UHGV virus genome: UHGV-0028991
Origin: a virus
Length of the DNA: 64,000 bases
Strand: one strand, 5' to 3'
Of this stretch, positions 1 to 19,704 are shown one piece after another. The notes under the pieces were generated by a model. That model had not been told where the DNA came from. It saw nothing but the letters and a program-made list of their open reading frames with translations, and ran no database searches. The position numbers and the translations under genes were made by a program. How positions within the stretch are numbered: position 1 is the stretch's first letter; each line of letters starts with the position of its first letter.

Positions 1-650
<650 letters not shown>

Positions 651-821: not shown

Positions 822-2332
822 ACTTGTTTCCTCCCATCACATTCAATCAATAGCCCATGCAACCCCTCCACCTGATTGCCGTCCTTGTCCGTAGCAAACC
901 AATCATATGTTCTGCCCGTGCCATAATTGACCTGTTGATATATTTTAATATGTCGTGGGAACTTACTGTTTCTCCCCTTGAGAATATGCGTCACTGTGTT
1001 GCATATAGCGTTTTCATCAATTCCAAGGTTAGGATTGTCTTTAGCCATATTGAATAAATCAAGCTCGTCCTGCTTTGGCGGCAATATAACCATTGTTGCA
1101 TCAGTCTTGCGGATTTGCCCTTTAGACCCGGCTAAGCAAGCCTCGGTCGGATATTTCATTGTGTCCTCCATGCCATTTGTTTGCACAGAGGTCAAAACAG
1201 GAATATCGCACATTCGCTGTACTTGCTTCAGCCTATCCGTTAAAGCAAGCAATACCATATCTTCTCTCTGTGGAATTTTGGTCTCGCCCGCAATTTCACT
1301 TGCAACAAAGCCGTTATTCTGTATGTAGTCAAAACAGGCGAGCTTAATGCCGTGGATGTTTTTGTATTCTTTTATGGTTGAAACAATGCTTGTTGTAGTG
1401 AAGCACGGGTCGTCAACAATGTACAGTTTGCTATCAAGCAATATCTGCGCAGCTCGTTCAACCCGTTCTTCTTCGTCCCCGCAGTAATAGCCGTCCTTGA
1501 TTTTTCCCCTTGATACGCCACTTATCCAAGCAATAATAAGCGGGTCAAGCTCTTTCCGCAAGTCCATTTCGGTATTGATGAATAGTGCGGGACCCACAGC
1601 GGACTTATTAGGAACAAATTGCTTTAACTCATCGTCCCAATATTCTTTGCAACAGCATTTGCACACATCGCCCATAGACTGGACGGACTTGCCAAAGCCG
1701 CTTTTGCCCGCTCTTAAAATCAGTCCGCTTTGACCTCTGTATATGCTGTTCAAATACGGCGACTGAAAAGACGGTCCATAATCGGGCGATTCCTTGAATT
1801 TATTTTTTGTTGCAATGAAATCAGCGCCGGCAAGATACTCTTCTCTTTTTGCCCCGCACTTAAACTCCCTTGAAATTTTTTCAGCTTGTGACAGAAAGTG
1901 GCTTGAAATTTCTTCTTCTGTATATTTGCTTATATCCTGCTCAAACTTAGCCGTGTCAAATCCAGCATCTTTGAACGCATTGATTAAACTGCATTTGCGG
2001 ACGGTCGAATAATACAGGGCAAAATTGTTTATATCTGCAACCTTTGATACTGTCTCAATGAATGCCGACAAATTGTTTGAGTCGAACAACTCTTTTACTG
2101 CTTGATTGCCCCTACAGAGATTATAACATTCCATCGCAGATATGCTATTTGCTCCTCTTTGAGCAAGAGCGTGAATTGCTTGATATAGCCGCAGATGGAA
2201 TAATTGTTCAGAAAAATCTTTTTTGTTGAGCGGATATTTGTCATTCACAGAAAGGTTTGGGCGTTGAATTAAGCATCCCAACAACAACCTTGCCGCTGTA
2301 AAATCATACATTAGGCACCTCAGGCTTTTCAA
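818..2332 (-). CDS. DnaB-like replicative DNA helicase
   Basis: 504 aa. C-terminal RecA-like domain with GLILRAGKSGFGKS (Walker A-like) and ACFDYIQ (DnaB DYLQ-like) motifs. N-terminal DnaB-like helical region. Confidence 0.6.
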   Translation of the reverse strand: MKSLRCLMYDFTAARLLLGCLIQRPNLSVNDKYPLNKKDFSEQLFHLRLYQAIHALAQRGANSISAMECYNLCRGNQAVKELFDSNNLSAFIETVSKVADINNFALYYSTVRKCSLINAFKDAGFDTAKFEQDISKYTEEEISSHFLSQAEKISREFKCGAKREEYLAGADFIATKNKFKESPDYGPSFQSPYLNSIYRGQSGLILRAGKSGFGKSVQSMGDVCKCCCKEYWDDELKQFVPNKSAVGPALFINTEMDLRKELDPLIIAWISGVSRGKIKDGYYCGDEEERVERAAQILLDSKLYIVDDPCFTTTSIVSTIKEYKNIHGIKLACFDYIQNNGFVASEIAGETKIPQREDMVLLALTDRLKQVQRMCDIPVLTSVQTNGMEDTMKYPTEACLAGSKGQIRKTDATMVILPPKQDELDLFNMAKDNPNLGIDENAICNTVTHILKGRNSKFPRHIKIYQQVNYGTGRTYDWFATDKDGNQVEGLHGLLIECDGRKQV

Positions 2333-5779: not shown

Positions 5780-6412
5780 TTAAAAATCCTTCAGAGCATC
5801 AATTACAAGAGTAATGTCATTAGGAATTTCGTCGGTGTCAAATGCGCCCCGAGGCGTTTTTGCCGTACTGTTCTTTGCCCGTGTTTCAAATACATACTCG
5901 CCATTCTCGTTGATTCGGGATAGTAGCACAGTAGTCATCTTGCTTTCCAAGCAAATCTTGTTTAACTTGCGCCCATTAGTTAGCATACAAGTAAAACCGT
6001 CCTCGCTTGTTTGAGTATGCCCTACAAGAATGACCGTTAAATCATCGCGCATTTTGTTCGCATAGTCTACAATGCCATACACGCTCTGTGCAAGGTCCAT
6101 CCACTTGTCGTATGTCTTTTCTTTGGCTCTTCGCATTTCGTCCGCAACCATGCACCCATTGAGTGTGTCAATGACAAGGAATTTAATTTGTTTTTGCTTC
6201 TCATCAATTTGTTGCATCAAAGAAAAAATTTGCTCGGGCGCATCACATCGAAAATAATTCTTATTCTCCTTGTTGTACTGCGTTCGCCACCCTTTCCAAC
6301 TCAACCCCTTACCATCAGCGTCGATATAGAACGTTTGCTTAGGGTCAAGTTTTTCAAGACTGGTTGTTTTTCCAGAACCGCTTGCGCCAAGAATCATAAT
6401 TGCCCTACTCAT
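5780..6412 (-). CDS. AAA-family ATPase (phage AAA_24-like, recombination/replication associated)
   Basis: 210 aa. Walker A ILGASGSGKTT; Walker B-like FLVIDTLN. Confidence 0.6.
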   Translation of the reverse strand: MSRAIMILGASGSGKTTSLEKLDPKQTFYIDADGKGLSWKGWRTQYNKENKNYFRCDAPEQIFSLMQQIDEKQKQIKFLVIDTLNGCMVADEMRRAKEKTYDKWMDLAQSVYGIVDYANKMRDDLTVILVGHTQTSEDGFTCMLTNGRKLNKICLESKMTTVLLSRINENGEYVFETRAKNSTAKTPRGAFDTDEIPNDITLVIDALKDF

Positions 6413-7365: not shown

Positions 7366-7891
7366 CGCCCTTCATGTTTGTAATCGGGCAACCATTGTTA
7401 TCTGTGAGCACCGCCCAACGCTTCACTTCGTCCCAATGAATATAATCCATATCGCTTGCAGTTTCCCAACATTCAAGCATGGAATTATACTTAGCCACAA
7501 TATAATCTCCATCATTGTATGCATATAATTTGTCATTATCACGGCTTTTTACTTGCAAAATATGATATGCATATTTGTACGGCCAATCCGTTTCGTCAGG
7601 AATCCACATTCCATTTGATTCTTGTATGGGATGCCGCCAATTAAACTTCATAGGCTTAGGTTGTTTCTTTGAATATCCGCGATGGCAAAATCCTTCGTCC
7701 CGAGCAAAATCAACATATTCTCCACTTGGAACCAAATGAAACATCGGGCAATTATGGTCACCACGATATTCACAATCCTTACATCTTACAATTGATACAA
7801 TGTCTGGAACATTATTGAGCAAAATTTTTACTTCGGGGGAACAATCAAGAATTATGCCCTCAAGTGTTTTACGGTTAATATATTCAGCCAT
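7343..7891 (-). CDS. hypothetical Cys-rich protein (RCKDCxYRG family, paralog B)
   Basis: 182 aa. IVRCKDCEYRGDHNCPMFHLVPSGEYVDFARDEGFCHRG. Confidence 0.4.
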   Translation of the reverse strand: MAEYINRKTLEGIILDCSPEVKILLNNVPDIVSIVRCKDCEYRGDHNCPMFHLVPSGEYVDFARDEGFCHRGYSKKQPKPMKFNWRHPIQESNGMWIPDETDWPYKYAYHILQVKSRDNDKLYAYNDGDYIVAKYNSMLECWETASDMDYIHWDEVKRWAVLTDNNGCPITNMKGDDNDETD

Positions 7892-8202
7892 CAGTCATCA
7901 CCATCCATTCTTGTTCCGCAACAAGGACACCATTTGAAGTCTTGTGTGTCATTATCGCAATAATTCCACTGCGCCCCACATTTTGAACAGAACATATAAT
8001 CTTTGTTGTCAATCCATCTTCCATGTTTAACAATTGCAACATTAAGTGGCAATGCTTTACTTACTACACCTATGGCACTCTCAAAGCCAAAAGTATAACT
8101 AACATCCCAGCATTCAGTATCTTTGCATTCATATTTATCGTTAAGGTCTTTAAACAACGCATTTTTATCAATATATTCAGCCATTATTAGCCCTCCTCTC
8201 AC
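7891..8202 (-). CDS. hypothetical Cys-rich protein
   Basis: 103 aa with CSKCG...CPCCG. Confidence 0.35.
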   Translation of the reverse strand: MRGGLIMAEYIDKNALFKDLNDKYECKDTECWDVSYTFGFESAIGVVSKALPLNVAIVKHGRWIDNKDYMFCSKCGAQWNYCDNDTQDFKWCPCCGTRMDGDD

Positions 8203-8374
8203 TCACAGTAAACTCTGGCAATATCATCCATATACTAACAAACCGTAGTAGAGTATAGATACCCACGTTCAATGCGTATAGACTTCACGTTATATACCTG
8301 CGGATTCGTGAAAGACCCAAATTGCCTTTTCATATGTTCCTCAAACTCATCTTTGAAGATAATAGTTAGCTTCA

Positions 8375-8776
8375 TCATTCTACCTCCTGCATCCAAAACT
8401 TGCGGCGGCAATCAGCGCAAATGCCGCTTTCGATGCAGTATGCATTACTTTCGATGCAGTATGCATTACAAGCACCTCTATCATCTCTGTATTCTTTCTT
8501 TAACGCTGCGGGGCAAAGAACAAGCACGCCGGTGCTCTTATCTACTTTTGCCTCGGGGTACTGCTCCAAAAATACACTTTGTCTTGTTTTACGAGGATGT
8601 TCGGCAGACCATTTTTCAACAATGGCGACTTGTTCTTTGTTTTTTGCTAAAGACACCCCATTAGCAAGTATGCAATTCACAGCGATGCCGGACTTGTAAA
8701 AACAAGGGCATTTCGAACATGTTTCATAAAATCTGCACATCCTGTCTTTTTCTTCGAGAAATTTAACAGCATCCAT
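8375..8776 (-). CDS. hypothetical protein
   Basis: 133 aa ORF, Cys-rich. Confidence 0.35.
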   Translation of the reverse strand: MDAVKFLEEKDRMCRFYETCSKCPCFYKSGIAVNCILANGVSLAKNKEQVAIVEKWSAEHPRKTRQSVFLEQYPEAKVDKSTGVLVLCPAALKKEYRDDRGACNAYCIESNAYCIESGICADCRRKFWMQEVE

Positions 8777-9057
8777 TATTCAATCCTCTCATTCCACAAT
8801 TCAATTGCTTTTGCCTGCAGCTCTTCGTCAGTGGCAATTTTATTTCGATATGGCGCTGGAACATCATTTTCGCAATTGCCATAATCCCCAACAAGCCCGC
8901 TTGCAAGTCCACCTCTTGCATAGCACACTCCGCATCGCACAGAATATTTAACACGCTCTATATATTTGTCACCATATGAAAATGTATAAAAGCTGGCGTT
9001 CTTTACAAGCTTAACCTTTGGATTTCCACAGAAAGGGCAGGGCTTTATTTCTTGCAT
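8776..9057 (-). CDS. hypothetical zinc-ribbon protein
   Basis: 93 aa with CPFCGNPK...CGVCYARG. Confidence 0.35.
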   Translation of the reverse strand: MQEIKPCPFCGNPKVKLVKNASFYTFSYGDKYIERVKYSVRCGVCYARGGLASGLVGDYGNCENDVPAPYRNKIATDEELQAKAIELWNERIE

Positions 9058-9392
9058 TATTTTGCCTCCGTATTTTTACTCGGTTCTACAAACGGATCAT
9101 ACTCGCTCTCTTCCGCGCTGTTTGCCCATTTTACCCACGCAACTACTTTTTCTCGCAATTCATCATCGAGTAAAAATGGTTCTTGCACTAAAATGATGCG
9201 TGGATTTTTCTTCATAATGTTTGCGTTATCCACAACTTCTGAATATTCAACTGGATGTTGCAACATTTTTGAATACACTCTGTCCCATTGGTTTGAAGCC
9301 CTACGTGTGGCGCCTGCTTCTCTGAGTTCAAACTTTCTCTTTAGGTGAGGATTCAATTTAAGGTTGTAAACTTGAATATACCCAATCCTCAT
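9057..9392 (-). CDS. hypothetical protein
   Basis: 111 aa ORF. Confidence 0.35.
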   Translation of the reverse strand: MRIGYIQVYNLKLNPHLKRKFELREAGATRRASNQWDRVYSKMLQHPVEYSEVVDNANIMKKNPRIILVQEPFLLDDELREKVVAWVKWANSAEESEYDPFVEPSKNTEAK

Positions 9393-9623
9393 TTATTTAT
9401 CCACCTCCTTAATCACAATATTTTTATCTTTGTTCGGACACACACATTGTTCACTGCCTTCAAACACACAGTCCTCACATTTGCCAGTATTGTACCAACA
9501 GTCCTTGCATGATTTTGGAACGTCAAAGCCCATGTCTGTATACCAATCACATGATTGTGCTAATGCTTGTGGGCATTGTCCTGATATACATTCAAACGCA
9601 CAAAAGCCATAACAATGTTTCAT
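9393..9623 (-). CDS. hypothetical Cys-rich small protein
   Basis: 76 aa with many Cys. Confidence 0.3.
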   Translation of the reverse strand: MKHCYGFCAFECISGQCPQALAQSCDWYTDMGFDVPKSCKDCWYNTGKCEDCVFEGSEQCVCPNKDKNIVIKEVDK

Positions 9624-9649
9624 TTTATTCCTCCAACACCTTAAAACAT

Positions 9650-10345
9650 TTAATTTGAATTACGCCATTCACCAAAATATTTTTCTTCGGCTTCTTTACG
9701 AACTTTAACAGCGTCCTCTATATTAACATATGCTCCTAACGATATGCACTTCTTTCTAACTTGAATGTGTGCTTGCCATTTTTGTTTGCCTTTATACTCT
9801 GTACGTCTAACACCTGTATACCCACTTGTATTATTTTTATGAGTCTTTCGATTCATATTGTTTTCCCAGTTGTCGTATGGTCGTAAATTTTCCTTACGAT
9901 TATCATATCCATTGCCATTTTTATGGTCTATATACTTTCTCCCCATAATAAACCAATGCAACATTATCTCTTTGCCGTTTTGTCTGGAAGATATATACCC
10001 AGCGTTTGTCCGCCAACCCATATCTTTAATTTTTTCATAATCTTCTAAATCAAAATAGAATGGAGCGCCATCGTTTGTGGCAAATCCTATCCCATATTCT
10101 TTAGTTAAATCGTATTCGTTGTATTTTCTTTTTGTTTTGCGGTTAAACTCAGCCGTCGCTTCATGTCTTAAACAGCCACACGATTTAACTCTGCCACTCG
10201 TCAAATCGTGACCTTTAACTTCTTTTATGTTACCACAATCGCATATGCAACTCCAACAAGTACGTCCATCTTTATTGCTTTTAATTCTCTTCAGAACAAC
10301 AAGCTTGCCAAATCTTTGCCCAGTTAAATCTTTAACTTGACTCAT
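9650..10345 (-). CDS. HNH endonuclease with C-terminal AP2 DNA-binding domain (homing-type)
   Basis: 231 aa. HKNGNGYDNRKENLRPYDNWENNMNRKTH (HNH). GYTGVRRTEYKGKQKWQAHIQVRKKCISLGAYVNIEDAVKVRKEAEEKYFGE (AP2-like). Confidence 0.6.
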   Translation of the reverse strand: MSQVKDLTGQRFGKLVVLKRIKSNKDGRTCWSCICDCGNIKEVKGHDLTSGRVKSCGCLRHEATAEFNRKTKRKYNEYDLTKEYGIGFATNDGAPFYFDLEDYEKIKDMGWRTNAGYISSRQNGKEIMLHWFIMGRKYIDHKNGNGYDNRKENLRPYDNWENNMNRKTHKNNTSGYTGVRRTEYKGKQKWQAHIQVRKKCISLGAYVNIEDAVKVRKEAEEKYFGEWRNSN

Positions 10346-10462
10346 ATTGTATTCTCCTTACACAAGAAATATTAAAGTGGAGGGCCGGTGTAAGCAACCC
10401 TCCTAAATAGTAGAGATTAGCTACCTTCTATTAACCTTTATCTAATTATACCATATTTATTG

Positions 10463-13400
10463 CTATTTGTCAAGCACTTTCCAACATTTTATTTCGATGT
10501 TTTTTTCACCTGTCTTTATCCACTTGCCATCAGAATTTTTCGTCCATTTAGGCACATTGTCAAGCACGGCTTTGATTATATCTCCTGATTTGCATTGATG
10601 CCCAGCCCACCATTTTTTATTGCACTTGTATTGACGCTCAACCCCGTGTTGTAGGTTGTATAGCCTTAACCATGCAGTACCGTAATTAGTGGTTTTACTG
10701 TCAAGCACAAGCCAGTCATTTATGTCTCGCTTTGAATCACAACCGTCAACATATCCTAAAAATTCTGCCTGCCATCTCAGCATGTCCACAATGGTCGTCT
10801 TAGGCATACTTTCTTGCTTAAGAATCGCAAGAATCAAAGCATAGTTGTCAATGCCACTTGCCGTCTTATCGGTCATTTTTTCGGCATGTTGCCTTAATAC
10901 ATCTACATTATAGCACATCTCAATCCATTTGTCAAGCTTTATTGTCTTAGATTTATAAAAAAGATTGAAAACGCGCGCGCCCTCAAGCAATGCCCTTGCT
11001 TTACCGAACTCTGAGAAATAGCCGATTTTAATCAATATATCGAGTTGTCGACTATCAGGCTTGACTGGCAAGTATTGCATACAAAACAGAAAATCAATGA
11101 AATTTTTGAATTGCTTATCTCGCAGAAGATACAGACTTTCTGCAACATCTGATGACATATATTTGATTGAGCCCAGTCCTTTATATATACAATTGCTATT
11201 AACATCACAGAGATAGTCAGACCGCGAATGCCTAAACTTAGGGGGGTTGATTGTTATGCCTACTTTATGTGCGTATGCCGTTAATGCATCCGTCTTTTCG
11301 CCGTTGCTTTGATTGATGTTTAGGGCAACCGTTAAGAATTGAAGCGGGTAGTGGTATCGCAACCATCCAGACACATAGCCTTCATAGCTGTATGGTTGGC
11401 TATGGTTTAGGCTAAACAGGTAATTACTGGCATCGATAACAACTTGAATAAAATCAGCAATAACCGCATCCGATTCCTCTTGACTCATATTATATCGCTC
11501 AGACATAGTTTTAGCAAACCCAGCTTTGATTTGAGGTATATCCTTATCTGTGCCTATTTTTTTTGCAAAGTGACGACGTACAACATCTGCCTCGCCCATA
11601 GTATATCCGCAATATTCATGCAAGAATTGAATTATTTGACACTGAAATACTAAGTACCCAAATGTCGGTTTCATGAATTCATCAATCGCCGCATTGCCAG
11701 ATTTGCGAATGACGCCATTGGCAAGGTCATCACGATACGATGCTCCTGCAGGCCGAATAGCACCATTGCCAATGGATAACAATGTCATATAATCAATATC
11801 GGGGTTGAGCGCCTTGAATTTTTGTATATTACTATCCGACAGCAACTGCTTGATATACCTGTCGCCAGTCGCGCCCTCCCACTGAAAAATACAAGTAGTA
11901 TCATCTCGGATGCTATTCCACACAGCGCCGTCATTGATATCAATATTATCTGGGGTCAAACGTTCAATACCTGCCAACTTGCATGTCTCGTTGATAAGTT
12001 CTATCGTATCAAGTTTCAGCAGGTCGAGTTTGACGTAGTTCTGAAGGTCGACCTCTTTCATATTGATTTGACTGATAGGCACATCATCCGTTGATGTCGT
12101 AAACAGTCCCATGCGGTCATCGATAGACACTGGCGAACAAACCAATCCGCAAGGATGGTTGCCCACAGACACCACGCAGCCATTTACGATGTCTACATAT
12201 TTGAACAGTTCAGGATATTTAGAGCGGCACCCATCCTCATCTTGCTCTACCACGTTGCAGATAGCATCGACTTCATCAAGCGGCATACCCAATGCACGAC
12301 CAACATCTCGCACAGCGCCCTTAATCGCTATAGTATTAAATGTCACAATATCAGAGCAATATAGTCCATGTTTGTTGAATATGTACTGCTTGACCTCGTT
12401 GATTCGACTCGGCGGGAAATCCGTATCGATATCGCTCAATGACACACGCTCCGTATTCATAAATCGTTCAAAATTCAGCCCATGCTTGATGCTATTCATC
12501 TCTGTGATGCCGAGTAGATAGGCAATGATAGAGCCATTACATGAGCCACGCCCATAGCCGACAAAAATACCTTGCGTCTTGCACCAAGTAATAATATCCT
12601 CCATTAACAGCATGAAGTCAATGGCTCCATTGTGGATGTATGCTTTCATTTCATACTCAATACGGTCAAGATATTCCTGATAGTTTGGCAGCTTATCAAC
12701 ACCACGCCATTTAATACCGCCAGCAATCTTATCTCTAAGCACCCGTTCACTATCGTCTCCCCACAGATGAGGATACTTGTAGCTATAATCAAGCTCAAAA
12801 GGCTCAATCATATCGGCAACTATATTGGTCATTTCAATGGAATTGAGATACACGTCCATTGGTAAAGCGTCCTGTTGCTTACACAAATCGACCAGTTCGT
12901 TATAGCTCAGCATTTCAAGATGGAATTTGTCCTCGCCGTCAAAATGAATATTTTTGGCTTTTTGCAAAATACTACGACCTTCAACATGTTTAGCGTTCAG
13001 AGCGTGTGTGTCAGTGCACATAAGCAATCGCAAACCAGTTTGCTGAGACAACTTATATAGCAGCTGGTTATATCTTACTTGCTCTTGGTCAAGATGGGGC
13101 TGAATCTCAAGAAAGCATCGGTCTTTATGCCGGGTTAGCCATTTGAGAAAGTCAAGCCGAATATCGTCAGGCGCCTTGTTGAGTACGCCTCCGAGGCAGG
13201 CGGTAGACACAATAATGTTATCGCTTGTGTTTTTTACATCGTCAATTGTAATGCGTGGCACATAATAGAATGAATTGTCATCTCGATTAAAGGATTTGCT
13301 CGACAGCTTGTTCAACTCAAGCACGCCTGCATAATTTTTGGCAATAAGCAAGCAGTGGTAATTATCGCGGATTTTTTCATTGAGCGTGCTGGTCAAATAG

Positions 13401-13636
13401 AACTCTTCTGCCGCTATAAATTTTATGCCGGACTCTTCCATGCAAAGCTTTTTTTTGACCCACTGAAAAACGCTTCCGTGTTCGCTAAATGCCAGCGCCT
13501 TCATACCCCATTTTTTTGCTTGTTTGACATATTCATCATACGATGTCACAGAATCGATGTTGGTTACGCCGTTTGAAAGCATTGTGTGGCAATGTAATAT
13601 CGTATAATTAGACATAAGAAAGACCTCTGTCCGCAA
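10463..13636 (-). CDS. dnaE: DNA polymerase III alpha-subunit-like (DnaE family) replicative polymerase with N-terminal PHP domain
   Basis: 1057 aa. N-terminal ILHCHTMLSNG...AFSEHGSVFQW is a PHP-domain signature. Length and architecture fit the PolIIIalpha family. Confidence 0.65.
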   Translation of the reverse strand: MRTEVFLMSNYTILHCHTMLSNGVTNIDSVTSYDEYVKQAKKWGMKALAFSEHGSVFQWVKKKLCMEESGIKFIAAEEFYLTSTLNEKIRDNYHCLLIAKNYAGVLELNKLSSKSFNRDDNSFYYVPRITIDDVKNTSDNIIVSTACLGGVLNKAPDDIRLDFLKWLTRHKDRCFLEIQPHLDQEQVRYNQLLYKLSQQTGLRLLMCTDTHALNAKHVEGRSILQKAKNIHFDGEDKFHLEMLSYNELVDLCKQQDALPMDVYLNSIEMTNIVADMIEPFELDYSYKYPHLWGDDSERVLRDKIAGGIKWRGVDKLPNYQEYLDRIEYEMKAYIHNGAIDFMLLMEDIITWCKTQGIFVGYGRGSCNGSIIAYLLGITEMNSIKHGLNFERFMNTERVSLSDIDTDFPPSRINEVKQYIFNKHGLYCSDIVTFNTIAIKGAVRDVGRALGMPLDEVDAICNVVEQDEDGCRSKYPELFKYVDIVNGCVVSVGNHPCGLVCSPVSIDDRMGLFTTSTDDVPISQINMKEVDLQNYVKLDLLKLDTIELINETCKLAGIERLTPDNIDINDGAVWNSIRDDTTCIFQWEGATGDRYIKQLLSDSNIQKFKALNPDIDYMTLLSIGNGAIRPAGASYRDDLANGVIRKSGNAAIDEFMKPTFGYLVFQCQIIQFLHEYCGYTMGEADVVRRHFAKKIGTDKDIPQIKAGFAKTMSERYNMSQEESDAVIADFIQVVIDASNYLFSLNHSQPYSYEGYVSGWLRYHYPLQFLTVALNINQSNGEKTDALTAYAHKVGITINPPKFRHSRSDYLCDVNSNCIYKGLGSIKYMSSDVAESLYLLRDKQFKNFIDFLFCMQYLPVKPDSRQLDILIKIGYFSEFGKARALLEGARVFNLFYKSKTIKLDKWIEMCYNVDVLRQHAEKMTDKTASGIDNYALILAILKQESMPKTTIVDMLRWQAEFLGYVDGCDSKRDINDWLVLDSKTTNYGTAWLRLYNLQHGVERQYKCNKKWWAGHQCKSGDIIKAVLDNVPKWTKNSDGKWIKTGEKNIEIKCWKVLDK

Positions 13637-14264
13637 AGTCCTCGCGCATCGGTCTATCGCCTCTAAGCCACGACATCATGGCGCAAGCCTTTACCCCGTA
13701 TTCATATGCGCAGTCAGTTATGCAATCAAAAACAACACCATCACACACAACTTTCTTTGAGCGCGATATTCTCCCACCCTTGCCCTTTAATTTTTTTGAT
13801 ATTTTTTTTCTTGTTTCCTCTGAATGCGTTTTGCCATACATCGGGTTATTCTTCCCAGCCACATTACGAGCGGCAGAGTTCCTTTGTCTTGACATTTTGC
13901 TCGAACTATTTTCTGCAACGGTGCCCCATTTCAAATTGTTTGCACAATTATTGCACTCTTTATCATATTTGAGATTCTTTTCATCCTTATGCATTACGAC
14001 GAAATTCCCATCTGCATGGGGCAAGAACGCTCTCGCCACAAGAACATGAACCCTATATGTTTTTTCCGTTCCACCCTTACTCAAAGCGACCTGCCAATAC
14101 CTTCCTGCAGCGTCGGCATGAGGTGTTAGATATTTCCCCTTAAATCGCACTGCGACCCCGTTGCGCCTTAAAACCGTTCTGTCCAAACTTCGGACTCGCC
14201 CCATATTGCTTACTTGATATAACCCATCATAGCCATGGATATCTTTCCACTCTTCGTTGAGCAT
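13608..14264 (-). CDS. HNH homing endonuclease with NUMOD4/NUMOD3 motifs
   Basis: 218 aa. N-terminal EEWKDIHGYDGLYQVSNMGRVRSL (NUMOD4). NPMYGKTHSEETRKKISKKLKGK (NUMOD3). Overlaps the 3' end of dnaE by 29 nt. Confidence 0.6.
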   Translation of the reverse strand: MLNEEWKDIHGYDGLYQVSNMGRVRSLDRTVLRRNGVAVRFKGKYLTPHADAAGRYWQVALSKGGTEKTYRVHVLVARAFLPHADGNFVVMHKDEKNLKYDKECNNCANNLKWGTVAENSSSKMSRQRNSAARNVAGKNNPMYGKTHSEETRKKISKKLKGKGGRISRSKKVVCDGVVFDCITDCAYEYGVKACAMMSWLRGDRPMREDFADRGLSYV

Positions 14265-14291: not shown

Positions 14292-15287
14292 TCAGTTGCT
14301 ATTCTGTTTTTCTAATTCCTTCTGTTTATATGCCGCCCTATATTCATCACGCTTAGCCTCATCACCATCATTCCACCATTTCACATTGATGAAATCAAGG
14401 ACTTTGGCCATACCAAGCCCCTTATCAGGAACCCACTTACCAGATTTATCGTATTTGCCACCACGCATACAATAATCATAGAGTTGTGGGTGAGATACGG
14501 CTAATTGCTGAAATCTATTTGGTTCTTTCTCAAGATGGCATCCATAACCACAAAACACGCAGCCAGTACGTTTGCACTTTGTTGTTGTATATTTGCCATA
14601 CTCATCCAATACAATTTCTCCGTAAACCTCTTTACAATATGGCACATTAAATTTAAGCAGATATTCAAGAACATCCGATTTAGTCCAAAACGACAACGGC
14701 TTAGACACCTTTTTCTTGCCATCAAAGCTATTGCATCCATGTTTAAGCCAATCGGACATGCGAAACATCGATTCTTCCGTCATTGTTCCGACATATAAAT
14801 ATCTGCCTGTTTCGCGCGTGTATCTATCCGTTGGCATCTTTTTCATAATGCTACAACAGTGGTCGCCAATGCGGATATCACATGACGGTTCAAGAAATAT
14901 CTTCCATTTTTCTCTTATCTTGAATCTTCCGCCATTTCCTTCAATTCGCACCTTCTTTAGTTTGTCGCTTTTGGAATTATACATGTCCCAAATAAACCGC
15001 GATTGTTCTTTGCTAATTAACGGGTAGCCATATTGCTTAATTATATCTACAAACGACATTCGTTCGTAGCATCGAGTTTTACGGTTATATGTTTGCGGAT
15101 GTAATATTTCGAGGCGCGCTCTTTTCAGAACAAAATCTCTTAATTCTGGATATTCAAGACCTGTATCACAATACACGTCTGGCACATCAGGATATACTCT
15201 ATGCACTAAATCACTCAGCACGGTTGAGTCAACGCCGCCAGAATTGCTTATTGCAACAGCCCCCCCCCCAACCTTCATGCCATTCAA
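14292..15287 (-). CDS. PP-loop ATPase of the PAPS-reductase / DndC / TtuA-like family, with C-terminal Cys cluster
   Basis: 331 aa. GGGAVAISNSGGVDSTVLSDLV is a PP-loop SGGxDS motif. C-terminal CKRTGCVFCGYGC is a likely Fe-S or zinc site. A G10 tract sits in codons 6 to 9. Confidence 0.55.
   Translation of the reverse strand: MNGMKVGGGAVAISNSGGVDSTVLSDLVHRVYPDVPDVYCDTGLEYPELRDFVLKRARLEILHPQTYNRKTRCYERMSFVDIIKQYGYPLISKEQSRFIWDMYNSKSDKLKKVRIEGNGGRFKIREKWKIFLEPSCDIRIGDHCCSIMKKMPTDRYTRETGRYLYVGTMTEESMFRMSDWLKHGCNSFDGKKKVSKPLSFWTKSDVLEYLLKFNVPYCKEVYGEIVLDEYGKYTTTKCKRTGCVFCGYGCHLEKEPNRFQQLAVSHPQLYDYCMRGGKYDKSGKWVPDKGLGMAKVLDFINVKWWNDGDEAKRDEYRAAYKQKELEKQNSN
15260..15269. repeat. homopolymeric C10/G10 tract within the 5' coding region of the PP-loop ATPase gene
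   Basis: Ten consecutive C on the plus strand, read as gtt ggg ggg ggg gct (VGGGA) on the minus strand, six nt after the ATG at 15276..15278. Confidence 0.9.
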
Positions 15288-15382
15288 TTATACGAGCGGT
15301 GCTTATTTGAATCTTTTCTTCAAGCGTCTTGGCTTGTAATACCCGCAAATCCTCTGTTGTATGACTCATTATTCGTCACCTC

Positions 15383-16018
15383 TCATTTCTTCGGTCTCGC
15401 AGGCATCAACACACCATCACCATTTTCAGCCTCAAAATAAATAGCAGAAACACCATTTCTTGCATAAGCGGTTGCATTAGGCAAACAACCCATAATATTT
15501 GCAAGATAAGCAGGGTTTACATATACATCCAATTCTTCGTCAAGACAGTACAGCTCGTCTTTATTGCAAGTCTTGCAGAATACCTTAATATCAGCAAGGT
15601 CAGGCAGAACGATTTGCTGCGCACCATCGGGCTTCTTAACAATGTGTTTGAGATGAAAAGGCTCGCCTGCTCCATCGGAAATGCGCTCAAGCGGCAATTC
15701 CTTTTTGAATCGAACGGCAGTACATCCATCACATACACAATATACGGTCTCGCCGTATTCATTTTCGTCCTCATACATGCCGTGGATATTGGGCTTGTCT
15801 GGATAGCATTTTTTTGCATTCTTGATGATTGCATTGGCGGCATTATACACGCTCTTTACCCCGCCTTGCTTAGCTGCTACATCCCGCATTTCTTTTTCAA
15901 GAGCTTCTTTCAAAAGGGCGAATTCGGTTGCAACACCTGAACTTAACATTCCGCCACAATCCTTTTTCCATTGTTCTTCCCACTTAGAAATAATCGGATA
16001 AAGCTTTTCTGCTTTCAT
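15383..16018 (-). CDS. hypothetical protein lying between the PP-loop ATPase and cysteine desulfurase genes
   Basis: 211 aa ORF; no recognisable motif. Confidence 0.4.
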   Translation of the reverse strand: MKAEKLYPIISKWEEQWKKDCGGMLSSGVATEFALLKEALEKEMRDVAAKQGGVKSVYNAANAIIKNAKKCYPDKPNIHGMYEDENEYGETVYCVCDGCTAVRFKKELPLERISDGAGEPFHLKHIVKKPDGAQQIVLPDLADIKVFCKTCNKDELYCLDEELDVYVNPAYLANIMGCLPNATAYARNGVSAIYFEAENGDGVLMPARPKK

Positions 16019-16270: not shown

Positions 16271-17341
16271 TCAATAGGTTTTACAAAAATTTTTGTAAAA
16301 ATCTGAAATTCCTGATACCAGTGCGTCAATATCGGACTTTTTTGTATATCGGCTAAATGAAATTCTGATAGTTTCTTCGGCGGTTTCTTTTGAGTAACCA
16401 TAGCCGTCACACAAAACGCGGTAGTCATGTTTGGCAGAGCATGCCGACGCTCCTGAACCGACATAGACATTTTTTGTAGAGAGATATTGCTGCAATGCGT
16501 CCGCGTTAATGCCAGAAAGATAAACAGCATTGATTGCGTCTGTCTTATTTTCTCCATGTCCGCCAAGTACAAACGCACAATCGTCTGTCACTTTAATAAC
16601 CTCTTTGAGGAAATAATCGACAAATCCCTTATAGGTCGCTTCACGATTGCCCGCAATATCCTGCGCCCATTCAAAGGCAGACACCATGGCAGAAATTGAT
16701 GCAACATCAGGAGTGCCGTGAAGAATGCCATAGTTGTTATTCGGGTCGTCTGACAATTCAAACCTCTTGCACAACTCATCACATAACCACAGCACGCCAA
16801 TATGTGGTCCATGGAACTTATGCCCACTGAACCAACAAGCGTCATATTTAAGTTTCTTCTGCGAACAGTCAACTTTACCAATTGCGGCAGTTAAATCACA
16901 ACCGTTAAAATCATATTCGTCCAGACATGAATCATCTGTTCTTTTTGGCAGGAACCAAGGGTTCTCAAACACATCGCCAGTCATTTGATTAACGCGCTGC
17001 CAAAATCTCAATGACACAAGCCTCAACGGCGATTTCTGAGCGACATCCCATACGCTGTCATGCTCTTTTGCATCGGTGCAAATCAAACCATCCCACAGCC
17101 GTCCGAGCATCTCAACGCTCTCTGTTGCGCATCTTGTAAAGATAAATTTGCCCTTGCCACCTGTGTCAAGCAATTCATGTAGCCGTAAACGGCATTTTTT
17201 TAGCGTCTGACGCTCGTTTATAGCATAGGGTGTATTGGCATTGCCCCACAGGTTGTCGCCCCGTACAGCGAAAAATTTTGGCATTGTCGTTGCGGCGTTA
17301 TCGAGATAAACAATGTTATCTTTCATTTTTCTCTCCTTCAA
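16271..17341 (-). CDS. cysteine desulfurase (class V aminotransferase, NifS/IscS-like)
   Basis: 356 aa. N-terminal IVYLDNAATT; FIFTRCATES; SGHKFHGPHIGVLW, where the SGHK lysine is the PLP-binding residue. Confidence 0.6.
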   Translation of the reverse strand: MKERKMKDNIVYLDNAATTMPKFFAVRGDNLWGNANTPYAINERQTLKKCRLRLHELLDTGGKGKFIFTRCATESVEMLGRLWDGLICTDAKEHDSVWDVAQKSPLRLVSLRFWQRVNQMTGDVFENPWFLPKRTDDSCLDEYDFNGCDLTAAIGKVDCSQKKLKYDACWFSGHKFHGPHIGVLWLCDELCKRFELSDDPNNNYGILHGTPDVASISAMVSAFEWAQDIAGNREATYKGFVDYFLKEVIKVTDDCAFVLGGHGENKTDAINAVYLSGINADALQQYLSTKNVYVGSGASACSAKHDYRVLCDGYGYSKETAEETIRISFSRYTKKSDIDALVSGISDFYKNFCKTY

Positions 17342-18867: not shown

Positions 18868-19704
18868 TTAGAATGTCATTGCCGAAACGGCTGCGTTGAC
18901 CGCTTTCTCGTTGGTCTTGATATATCTGCTCGTAGTAGAAATAGACGAATGATGCAGTACATCACGAATAACCGCAACAGGTACACCGTTCTCGGACATA
19001 ATGGATGCACACGCCGCTCTCAGCGAATGCGCAGAAATCTCAAATGGCAACCCCGCTTTTCGCCCAACAACCTTCAGCGTCTTGTCGAAATTGGCGTTAT
19101 TGATTTTGCCGCCCCATGTGGAAGTAAACAAATATTCACCGCCGTCTTTTCTCTTCGGCAGATATTGTTCAATTGCCACAATATTTGCATCGCTGAAGAA
19201 CGCAAAGAATTCCTTGCCGCCCTTACCTGTCATAGCAATCTTGTTCGCACCGTCTTTGCGCATTTGTTCGTATTGCTTAAGAGTGATGCTTGTGAGCTCG
19301 TTGAATCGAAGCCCAGTAGTTGCATAGCAGGAAATCAGCGCCTTATCGCGGGCATTTGTCGCGGCTTTAATAAGCGCAGACACCATATCTGCACTCATAA
19401 ATTCCTTCGGCTTAGAATGAATGCTCGGGCGCTTAACATTCGCCATTGGATTCTTTTCAATCGTCCCGCATTCGCACAGAAACTTGAAATAAGAATTGAG
19501 CGCGTTAAGCTTAATATTGATTGTCGCAGAAGAAGCATCGGACATGCTTTCCATCCATGCGAGAATATCATATTTCTCAACGCGCTCTGCGTCCTTATTT
19601 GCAAAAGCAAAGAAATTTGCAATTGCCTCGGCATATCTTGCGATTGTGTTTGCGGCTTTCTTTTCTGCTCTCAGGCTGATAAGATACTCATTAAACTTCG
19701 TCAT
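18868..19704 (-). CDS. int: tyrosine recombinase / phage integrase
   Basis: 278 aa. C-terminal HSLRAACASIMSENGVPVAVIRDVLHHSSISTTSRYIKT carries the R, H-x-x-R and Y catalytic signature. Confidence 0.7.
   Translation of the reverse strand: MTKFNEYLISLRAEKKAANTIARYAEAIANFFAFANKDAERVEKYDILAWMESMSDASSATINIKLNALNSYFKFLCECGTIEKNPMANVKRPSIHSKPKEFMSADMVSALIKAATNARDKALISCYATTGLRFNELTSITLKQYEQMRKDGANKIAMTGKGGKEFFAFFSDANIVAIEQYLPKRKDGGEYLFTSTWGGKINNANFDKTLKVVGRKAGLPFEISAHSLRAACASIMSENGVPVAVIRDVLHHSSISTTSRYIKTNEKAVNAAVSAMTF

Follow-up and report, generated by a model that had tools for sequence, protein, structure and literature searches.

We analysed a 64,000-nucleotide (nt) stretch of the virus genome UHGV-0028991 (hereafter the window), in which a gene for a PP-loop enzyme resembling phosphoadenosine phosphosulfate (PAPS) reductase contained a run of ten G residues. 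The whole gene, as defined by its homologs, was located at 14292..15369 on the minus strand. It encodes 358 aa at G9 and 359 aa at G12, and at the G10 length found here it was split into two frames at the tract. The run (C10 on the plus strand) covered the codons of W34-G35-G36-A37, a conserved turn that leads from the N-terminal helix into strand beta-1. An earlier note on this DNA had reported it at 15260-15269, and it was found exactly there, uninterrupted and on the coding minus strand. No other G or C homopolymer of at least 7 nt was present in the 64-kb window, and A/T runs reached 8 nt at most. A first-order Markov model of the window gave an expectation of 0.007 G/C runs of at least 10 nt in 64 kb. 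In addition, GGG was the rarest glycine codon (14.6% of the Gly codons in the window's long open reading frames, ORFs), and this share gave a probability of about 0.02 for two GGG codons in a row. The length of the tract was far above chance.

Comparison with homologs placed the start of the gene at ATG 15369. The N-terminal sequence MSHTxEDLxxLQSKxLEEKIQISTARIIEW(Y/H)ExWGG was found directly before S-x-S-G-G-x-D-S in 117 of the 120 best homolog clusters, and the first 34 residues of the window's N-terminal segment agreed with this family consensus. The homologs were 345-365 aa long, with 99-100% coverage of the G9 reading. K19, R26, I27 and W30 were invariant in the N-terminal segment. S43, G44, G45, D47 and S48 were invariant in 56 homologs, and the alignment to the phrog_424 profile began at residue 13. 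A Shine-Dalgarno-like sequence, GAGAGGTGA, was located at 15376..15384 (-), 6 nt upstream of ATG 15369, and relatives carried AAGGGGG or GAAGGGGG at this position. The conserved N-terminal helix segment of 35 residues was encoded upstream of the PP-loop ORF, in another frame. As assembled, the N-terminal segment (15229..15369, -) ran from ATG 15369 to a TGA at 15231..15229 and encoded 46 aa, namely MSHTTEDLRVLQAKTLEEKIQISTARIIEWHEGWGGG followed by 9 out-of-frame residues. This 46-aa ORF overlapped the tract in a frame other than that of the PP-loop ORF, and G9 or G12 joined the two. The PP-loop motif S-N-S-G-G-V-D-S, the ATP pyrophosphatase signature SGGxDS, followed 4 codons downstream of the tract (15225..15248, -). 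When the repaired protein was searched against the window by tblastn, residues 1-37 matched 15369..15259 and residues 35-358 matched 15266..14295, and the two different frames met at the tract. Translation of length variants gave 357-359 aa for G6, G9 and G12, and a stop after 39-46 aa for G7, G8, G10 and G11. No paralog that could serve as a compensating second copy was found in the window by tblastn. On this gene model the run exceeds an in-frame length by one G, so that no full-length enzyme is encoded and the predicted state of the gene is OFF.

The earlier note had reached a different gene model. It had started the gene at ATG 15278, where the string atg aag gtt ggg ggg ggg gct is indeed present, placed the tract in codons 6-9 right after the start, and called G10 in frame (ON). 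The actual start was 91 nt further upstream. Because the homolog-supported start is ATG 15369, the tract falls at codons 34-37, not beside the start, and G10 stops this frame after 46 aa, so the gene would be OFF. The ORF chosen by the earlier note was also that of the gene callers (14292..15278, -). It runs from the internal ATG 15278 (or TTG 15287) to the stop and encodes 328 aa without either N-terminal helix. This exact product (P0121) was recorded on 4 contigs. No Shine-Dalgarno sequence was located ahead of ATG 15278, which sits within the translated upstream ORF. This ATG was a by-product of conserved H/Y-E codons (yAT GAr), and the E-W codons yielded an ATG in the third frame as well. 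These internal ATGs explain why alleles of this kind receive N-truncated gene calls. Three N-truncated homologs were present in the top-120 list, and both of those checked at the DNA level were tract frameshifts. The structure of the N-terminus was viewed in the AlphaFold model of a 94%-identical full-length relative, P0001 (predicted local distance difference test, pLDDT, 95.2). Helices at residues 5-12 and 16-33 were followed by the W34-G35-G36 turn and then by beta-1 and the PP-loop, and the N-terminal helices were well packed, with pLDDT 91-99.

Alleles of close relatives (at least 90% protein identity) were read at the DNA level, and the lengths given are consensus-level values from assembled contigs. 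The window allele (L145 in our numbering of loci), G10 and out of frame, was present on 4 contigs from Logan, ENA and NCBI. A G7 allele, also out of frame, was present on 10 contigs with identical flanks (L144). G10 was found again out of frame in L146, G6 in frame (W-G-A) in L147, and G9 in frame in L154 and L155/L156. An interrupted tract, GGGGAGGGG (G4-A-G4), was in frame in L019 and L152/L153. The window and L144 were 99.3% identical over 1400 nt, and their sole indel was 3 nt within the tract. L146 and L147 were 99.4% identical, with a sole indel of 4 nt, again within the tract. The earlier note had proposed slipped-strand switching and had suggested checking relatives for a tract of other length or an interrupted tract at the same codons. 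Slippage-prone behaviour of the tract was supported by the five forms in the cluster and by the confinement of the only indel to the tract in both pairs. The note had also named mixed Gly codons in close relatives as evidence against its proposal, and these were present in some relatives and not in others. The window allele's exact-flank pattern had no match in IMG/VR or GTDB genomes. A 1.9-kb query spanning the gene had no megablast match among 50,697 phage records, and no cultured close relative was found.

The survey was extended to distant homologs (20-65% identity) from IMG/VR and metagenomes, which form a sample of the family. The metagenome pattern scan was loose, and among the 120 stretches listed, 6 loci contained real homologs (8 gene copies, three of them in L126). 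The runs of the distant homologs occupied exactly the same W-G-G codons. Out-of-frame alleles were found in L013 (G10), L015 (G6), L022 (G8), L049 (G9), L083 (G9), L136 (G8), L150 (G7), L151 (G7) and two L126 paralogs (G6). In-frame alleles were found in L021/L023 (G7), L096 (G8), L103 (G8) and one L126 paralog (G9). Among the sampled distinct alleles, 13 of 20 with a run of at least G6 were out of frame, compared with 0 of 14 with G4 or less (Fisher p = 1.6e-4). This fraction of 65% was close to the 2/3 expected under random phase. All of the 11 out-of-frame alleles tested gave a complete ORF of 284-359 aa once the tract alone was repaired, and the remaining two, L150 and L151, had an otherwise intact downstream ORF (323 and 334 aa). 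The N-terminal peptide was intact and near the family consensus in all 13. L126 carried three tandem PAPS-reductase-like paralogs (7437..10388), each with a run at the W-G-G codons. The runs were G9 in frame, followed by two G6 out of frame that were repairable by G8 (or G5). Across some 380 kb of DNA from related phages, the tract of the PP-loop gene accounted for almost every G/C run of at least 7 nt. Most of the PP-loop gene family was without a tract. Two variants of other kinds were also observed in the family. L010 had lost the entire N-terminal helix region together with beta-1 through an in-frame deletion at 6001..6050 (MSHTK|SGGVDS...), with the rest intact at 64% identity. L006 had a TGA in place of a conserved Trp codon (IKE*YEHW, about 6075..6085) in an otherwise intact gene, and this was either read as Trp by recoding or a nonsense mutation.

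The PP-loop locus has every feature of contingency loci that can be read from sequence, namely a slippage-prone run, polymorphism confined to the tract, toggling of the frame and OFF alleles that are otherwise intact. In the alleles compared, tract length appeared to change faster than the flanking sequence gained substitutions. The recurrence of runs in many divergent lineages, although GGG is rare, supported a switch, as did the coexistence of in-frame, out-of-frame and interrupted alleles in near-identical genomes and the run kept by each of the three tandem L126 paralogs. An old pseudogene was not supported because no broken allele showed a second lesion. Out-of-frame alleles without such a lesion suggested a reversible or short-lived OFF state instead. 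We therefore favor, as the probable though not secure explanation, that the G10 tract is a slipped-strand contingency switch in the PAPS-reductase-like gene. The replication polymerase would slip on this homopolymer inside the 358-codon phage gene and gain or lose G residues, so that the gene toggles reversibly between intact and broken. The locus would then act as a bet-hedging switch for an accessory sulfur-transfer function. This function may be nucleic-acid modification together with the neighbouring cysteine desulfurase, in parallel with a repeat-controlled Dam gene in the same genome.

Several observations weighed against switching. Each of the four close alleles was seen with one tract length across its contigs (G7 on 10, G10 on 4). 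G6, G8, G9, G11, G12 and G13 versions of the window allele were absent in exact protein look-ups. The 29 hypothetical sequences looked up for the four close alleles, which were either length variants or swapped backgrounds, had no match. These look-ups require an exact full-length match, and such absence weakens rapid consensus-level switching but does not exclude it. Tract length looked stable per strain at the consensus level. In addition, G7 and G10, which are both alleles of the lineage of the window, shared the same broken phase. Runs of G6-G7 slip far less than G9-G10, yet 6 of 8 were out of frame, which fits fixed frameshifts as well as switching. The N-terminus-less variant in L010 suggested that loss of the N-terminus may not always abolish function.

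These points bear on the rival explanations, among which a non-adaptive mutational hotspot deserves the most weight. The gene would be a dispensable accessory gene and the frameshifts the first step of recurrent gene loss. The run arises readily from the W-G-G codons (TGG GGN GGN), the out-of-frame fraction of 13/20 equals the random expectation, most of the rarely slipping G6-G7 runs are out of frame, the contigs of any one strain agree on a single, stable length, and most of the family lacks the tract. However, recurrent loss does not sit well with the state of the broken alleles. No second lesion was seen in the 13 out-of-frame alleles, 11 of them tested by repair and L150 and L151 having the intact downstream ORF, and all retained the N-terminal peptide. 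Uninterrupted runs also recurred across divergent lineages despite the low share of GGG, the three tandem L126 paralogs each retained a run, and in-frame G6, G8 and G9 alleles occurred alongside broken ones in close relatives. On balance, we consider a mere hotspot unlikely, but it is the rival to be taken most seriously. The preserved N-terminal coding segment could also mean that the frame is corrected at expression, by RNA polymerase slippage or a ribosomal +1 shift, so that some full-length protein, spanning ...EWHEGWGGAVAISNSGG..., is made from G10. The frameshift in the genome would then be programmed or at least tolerated. Transcriptional frameshifting rescues the interrupted tssM of Citrobacter, and slippage on long homopolymers is documented (PMC4256274, PMC6260861, PMC5009743). 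With 10 nt, the run equals or exceeds the RNA-DNA hybrid in length, and 8 of 13 broken alleles were in the +1 phase. However, the excess of +1 over -1 was not significant (8 vs 3 when tested, p = 0.23), the phases varied (0, +1 and -1) and most homologs were unshifted. Efficient transcriptional slippage needs runs longer than G6-G7, and the published examples are mostly on A/T runs. No downstream RNA structure was found when 116 nt from the tract region were compared with shuffled sequences (z = -0.15). Such correction is improbable. A conserved programmed ribosomal frameshift was rejected because the phases vary among 0, +1 and -1 and the downstream fold was no better than shuffled; the run-less homologs were all unshifted.

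A different gene start would make the frameshift disappear. If translation began at ATG 15278 (or TTG 15287), G10 would be in frame and the 328-aa protein would be the functional ON product. This ORF is intact and was picked by gene callers (P0121), the G7 and G10 alleles of the lineage keep the same frame for it, and L010 shows that the gene can persist without the N-terminal segment. It would nevertheless have to be set against the 117 of 120 homologs that start about 30 residues upstream, with invariant residues there, and against the Shine-Dalgarno sequence, which precedes the upstream start and not ATG 15278. The internal ATG is an automatic by-product of the H/Y-E codons, and the product would lose two well-packed helices. 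We give this reading even less credence than correction at expression. An artefact of sequencing or assembly, with a true genome of G9, was also weighed, since homopolymers are classic sites of indel error and some surveyed contigs were thinly covered (L049 at 2.3x, L103 at 3.3x). The identical G10 was assembled independently on 4 contigs in several runs and pipelines (ENA, Logan, NCBI), and the sister G7 allele was present on 10 contigs. The window also has 26 A/T runs of 7-8 nt, and none was observed to split a gene, although no systematic check of this was made. Because independent assemblies agree, the differences are 3-4 nt, which are not one-base miscounts, and accurately sequenced G6-G7 runs were also out of frame, sequencing error was rejected as very unlikely, the least credible of these readings.

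The contingency switch would act on an enzyme whose family was clear. The protein matched PF01507 with 53.2 bits against a cut-off of 22.5 bits, and phrog_424 at 6.8e-38. The closest solved structures were CysH (6vpu) and adenosine phosphosulfate (APS) reductase (2goy), with Foldseek E = 2.5e-7, probability 1.0 and a target-normalised template modelling (TM) score of 0.55-0.6. The next structural matches were the sulfurtransferases TtuA and LarE. The SGGxDS PP-loop of PF01507 is shared with CysH/APS reductase and with DndC, SspD and BrxP. Identity to CysH was only 15-19%, and unlike CysH the window protein has about 100 extra C-terminal residues. The cysteines C171, C172, C270 and C273 of the PP-loop family were invariant and formed a CC...CxxC pattern, as in APS reductase, where this pattern binds an iron-sulfur (Fe-S) cluster. 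The PP-loop enzyme probably carries such a cluster.

The neighbourhood also pointed to sulfur. Two genes upstream and in the same orientation, a cysteine-desulfurase-like gene (aminotransferase class V) was located at 16271..17341 (-), with a PF00266 match of 3e-21. Its product matched PADLOC DndA at 5.7e-24 and SspA at 7.1e-24, and none of its NCBIfam matches (NifS/IscS/DndA) reached the curated cut-off. Such a DndA/SspA-like desulfurase within the operon recalls the Dnd and Ssp systems, and this protein probably donates the sulfur. A conserved 211-aa gene (15383..16018, -), whose 90% cluster had 286 members, separated the desulfurase from the PP-loop gene. It had no match in Pfam, PHROGs, NCBIfam or PADLOC, and it was also upstream of the PP-loop gene in L019, L144-L147, L152, L153 and L155. 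In L151 (1..1805) the desulfurase, the PP-loop gene (G7, out of frame) and Dam were directly adjacent in that order, which strengthened the tie of the PP-loop gene to nucleic-acid modification. The likeness to CysH/APS reductase, the CC...CxxC cysteines, the desulfurase and the adjacency in L151 together made a sulfur-transfer role plausible, possibly on nucleic acid. Membership in a DNA phosphorothioation system was not established. PADLOC gave BrxP at 1.2e-13, covering residues 26-78 only, and SspD at 5.6e-6, and both matches were weak, superfamily-level and not orthologous. No DndC match was found in NCBIfam or PADLOC. A partner nucleoside triphosphatase (NTPase), which is reported to be required for phosphorothioate synthesis (PMC12914056), was also not found. 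This search for DndD, SspC or BrxC covered the adjacent 211-aa and 123-aa proteins and ten others (2.7-21 kb), not every ORF of the window. The sole ATPase among those ten was an AAA_24 protein at 5780..6412. With no DndC match and no partner NTPase among the proteins scanned, DndC membership was not supported.

A second repeat was located in the Dam (MethyltransfD12) gene of the window. It was an (AG)14 repeat at 499..526 (-), recorded by the earlier note as (CT)14, between the Y-x-G-G-K motif and the FxGxG motif, and the Dam ORF extends past the left end of the window. The earlier note had considered the repeat out of frame (OFF). However, n = 14 was in frame with ATG 592 (MRYLGGK...), and an ENA scaffold identical to the window over the 400 nt compared had a gene call for Dam as an uninterrupted MethyltransfD12 protein of 239 aa. 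The region 499..650 (-) encoded a pair of N-terminal modules that are homologous but differ in frame, MQYMGGKFRIAKQISEVLNN from ATG 650 and MRYLGGKSRISRPIAKVLNSVL from ATG 592, both upstream of the repeat. At n = 11, 14 and 17 the second module was fused to the catalytic body, at n = 12 and 15 the first module was fused, and at n = 13 and 16 neither was fused and there was no start. This pairing of repeat length and module would give two possible ON forms of Dam and one OFF form. The same two-module design was found in L009 (about 7780..7950) with (GA)11, in frame with the second start. In L013, G8 was in frame in the same linker (12465..12472), and it was one of the few G/C runs of at least 7 nt outside the PP-loop gene in the related DNA. 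Different repeat types thus recurred at the same linker position. The Dam genes of L001, L003 and L014 had a single N-terminus and no linker repeat. A Logan contig from ERR7738624 (L149) ended exactly at the Dam (AG)14 (1796..1823), and this break fits a repeat that exceeds the assembly word length or is heterogeneous in the reads.

These results supported two putatively repeat-controlled genes in this phage clade, with predicted ON/OFF states opposite to those first assigned. The earlier note had spoken of two repeats in two DNA-modification-type genes. The Dam repeat does lie in a DNA methyltransferase gene, and for the PP-loop gene a modification role is suggested by its neighbours. As a whole, the note's observation was right and its general idea plausible, while its gene model and both ON/OFF calls were wrong. 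A more speculative and tentative proposal, which we think unlikely to hold in full, is that the two genes form repeat-driven 'epigenetic dice'. The poly-G tract would toggle a PP-loop/Fe-S sulfur inserter and the Dam repeat would select the N-terminal module, so that mixed progeny hedge against modification-sensitive and modification-dependent defences. Under this proposal, the PP-loop enzyme and the phage desulfurase may make a minimal DNA thio-modification without a DndD/SspC-type NTPase, and some relatives may extend the scheme through tandem paralogs, each with its own switch.

A precedent is the A9 repeat of T2 agt (alpha-glucosyltransferase), an experimentally shown reversible contingency locus, with reversion about 1000-fold above single-nucleotide polymorphisms and with ON and OFF states favoured by different defences, McrA/BC vs TgvAB (Gomez, Barrick and Waters, bioRxiv 2025, PMC12633550). 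Both loci have a mononucleotide repeat in the coding region of a phage accessory gene, and in T2 the frameshifts are made and repaired by +/-1 slippage. The agt product modifies the phage's own nucleic acid, and the earlier note had proposed the same logic here. Unlike the A run with measured reversion in the lytic coliphage T2, the tract described here is a G run in a PAPS-reductase-like gene of an uncultured gut phage, probably of Firmicutes, and many divergent homologs as well as tandem paralogs have runs at these codons too. Campylobacter Fletchervirus phages carry hypermutable polyG tracts (Sorensen et al. 2021, Cell Rep 35:109214, cited in PMC12823448 and PMC10877375). They likewise consist of poly-G in phage ORFs and create ON/OFF subpopulations by slipped-strand mispairing. 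Most of them reportedly lie in structural genes, including those for receptor binding, and host and phage alike are said to be rich in polyG. In contrast, the tract here was in an enzyme gene of the replication/modification module and was the sole long G run in 64 kb. Slipped-strand contingency loci are classical in bacteria, where phase-variable DNA methyltransferases (phasevarions) and the polyG contingency genes known from Campylobacter, Haemophilus and Neisseria have been reviewed (PMC11868660, PMC4235727). As at this locus, a modification-type gene has a simple sequence repeat in its 5' portion, the reading frame sets the ON or OFF state, and repeat length varies among close strains. Those loci are chromosomal, with demonstrated switching and regulons, whereas this one is phage-borne and its modification putative. 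No report of runs in phage PAPS-reductase-like genes was found in the literature. The PP-loop locus probably joins this known class, from which it differs in repeat type, gene family, host group and the recurrence of its runs throughout a large gene family.

A real switch would mean that uncultured gut phages share a bet-hedging device only recently described in T-even and Campylobacter phages. It would be applied here to widespread, little-characterised PAPS-reductase-like phage genes, for which auxiliary metabolic genes is the usual label. Near-identical genomes in public samples have ON, OFF and interrupted, locked-ON alleles, and these would constitute a natural experiment. The samples with such alleles include ERR7738624 and the ENA assembly ERZ28613879 (G10), ERR7738581 (G7), SRR24884107 (G10), SRR24884100 (G6), and ERR10754268 and ERR5192243 (G9). 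There was also a lesson for annotation, as gene callers give an N-truncated protein of 326-331 aa for such alleles and overlook the frameshift.

The window matched a human-gut scaffold of 183,572 bp in ENA (ERZ28613879 scaffold_186), exactly over the stretch compared, and its relatives were contigs of about 75-100 kb. The replication module contained DnaB, DnaE and a tyrosine integrase. The nearest cultured DnaE proteins were from Clostridioides and Bacillus phages at 41-49% identity, the best being Clostridioides phage pCD1602_4 at 49%. These matches and the Shine-Dalgarno-led starts pointed to a Firmicute host. The tyrosine recombinase/integrase gene (PF00589, 7e-28) was located at 18868..19704 (-), about 3.5 kb upstream of the PP-loop locus. 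The window's element, on a 183.6-kb scaffold compared with relatives of about 80 kb, could be a temperate phage or a phage-plasmid, or the assembly may have fused it with other sequence. An HNH/NUMOD homing-endonuclease gene lay between the PP-loop gene and DnaE (13608..14264, -). It was absent at this site in L144, L147 and L154, where DnaE was directly next, and an AP2-domain gene was present instead in L146 and L155. The site looked like a hotspot for mobile endonuclease insertion. In the window and in L147, one ORF of about 1055 aa encoded DnaE. In L144 (1412..1784), L152 and L153 (1406..1671) it was called as a 44-aa PHP fragment and a 987-aa protein, and these split calls could be another frameshift or a small insertion.

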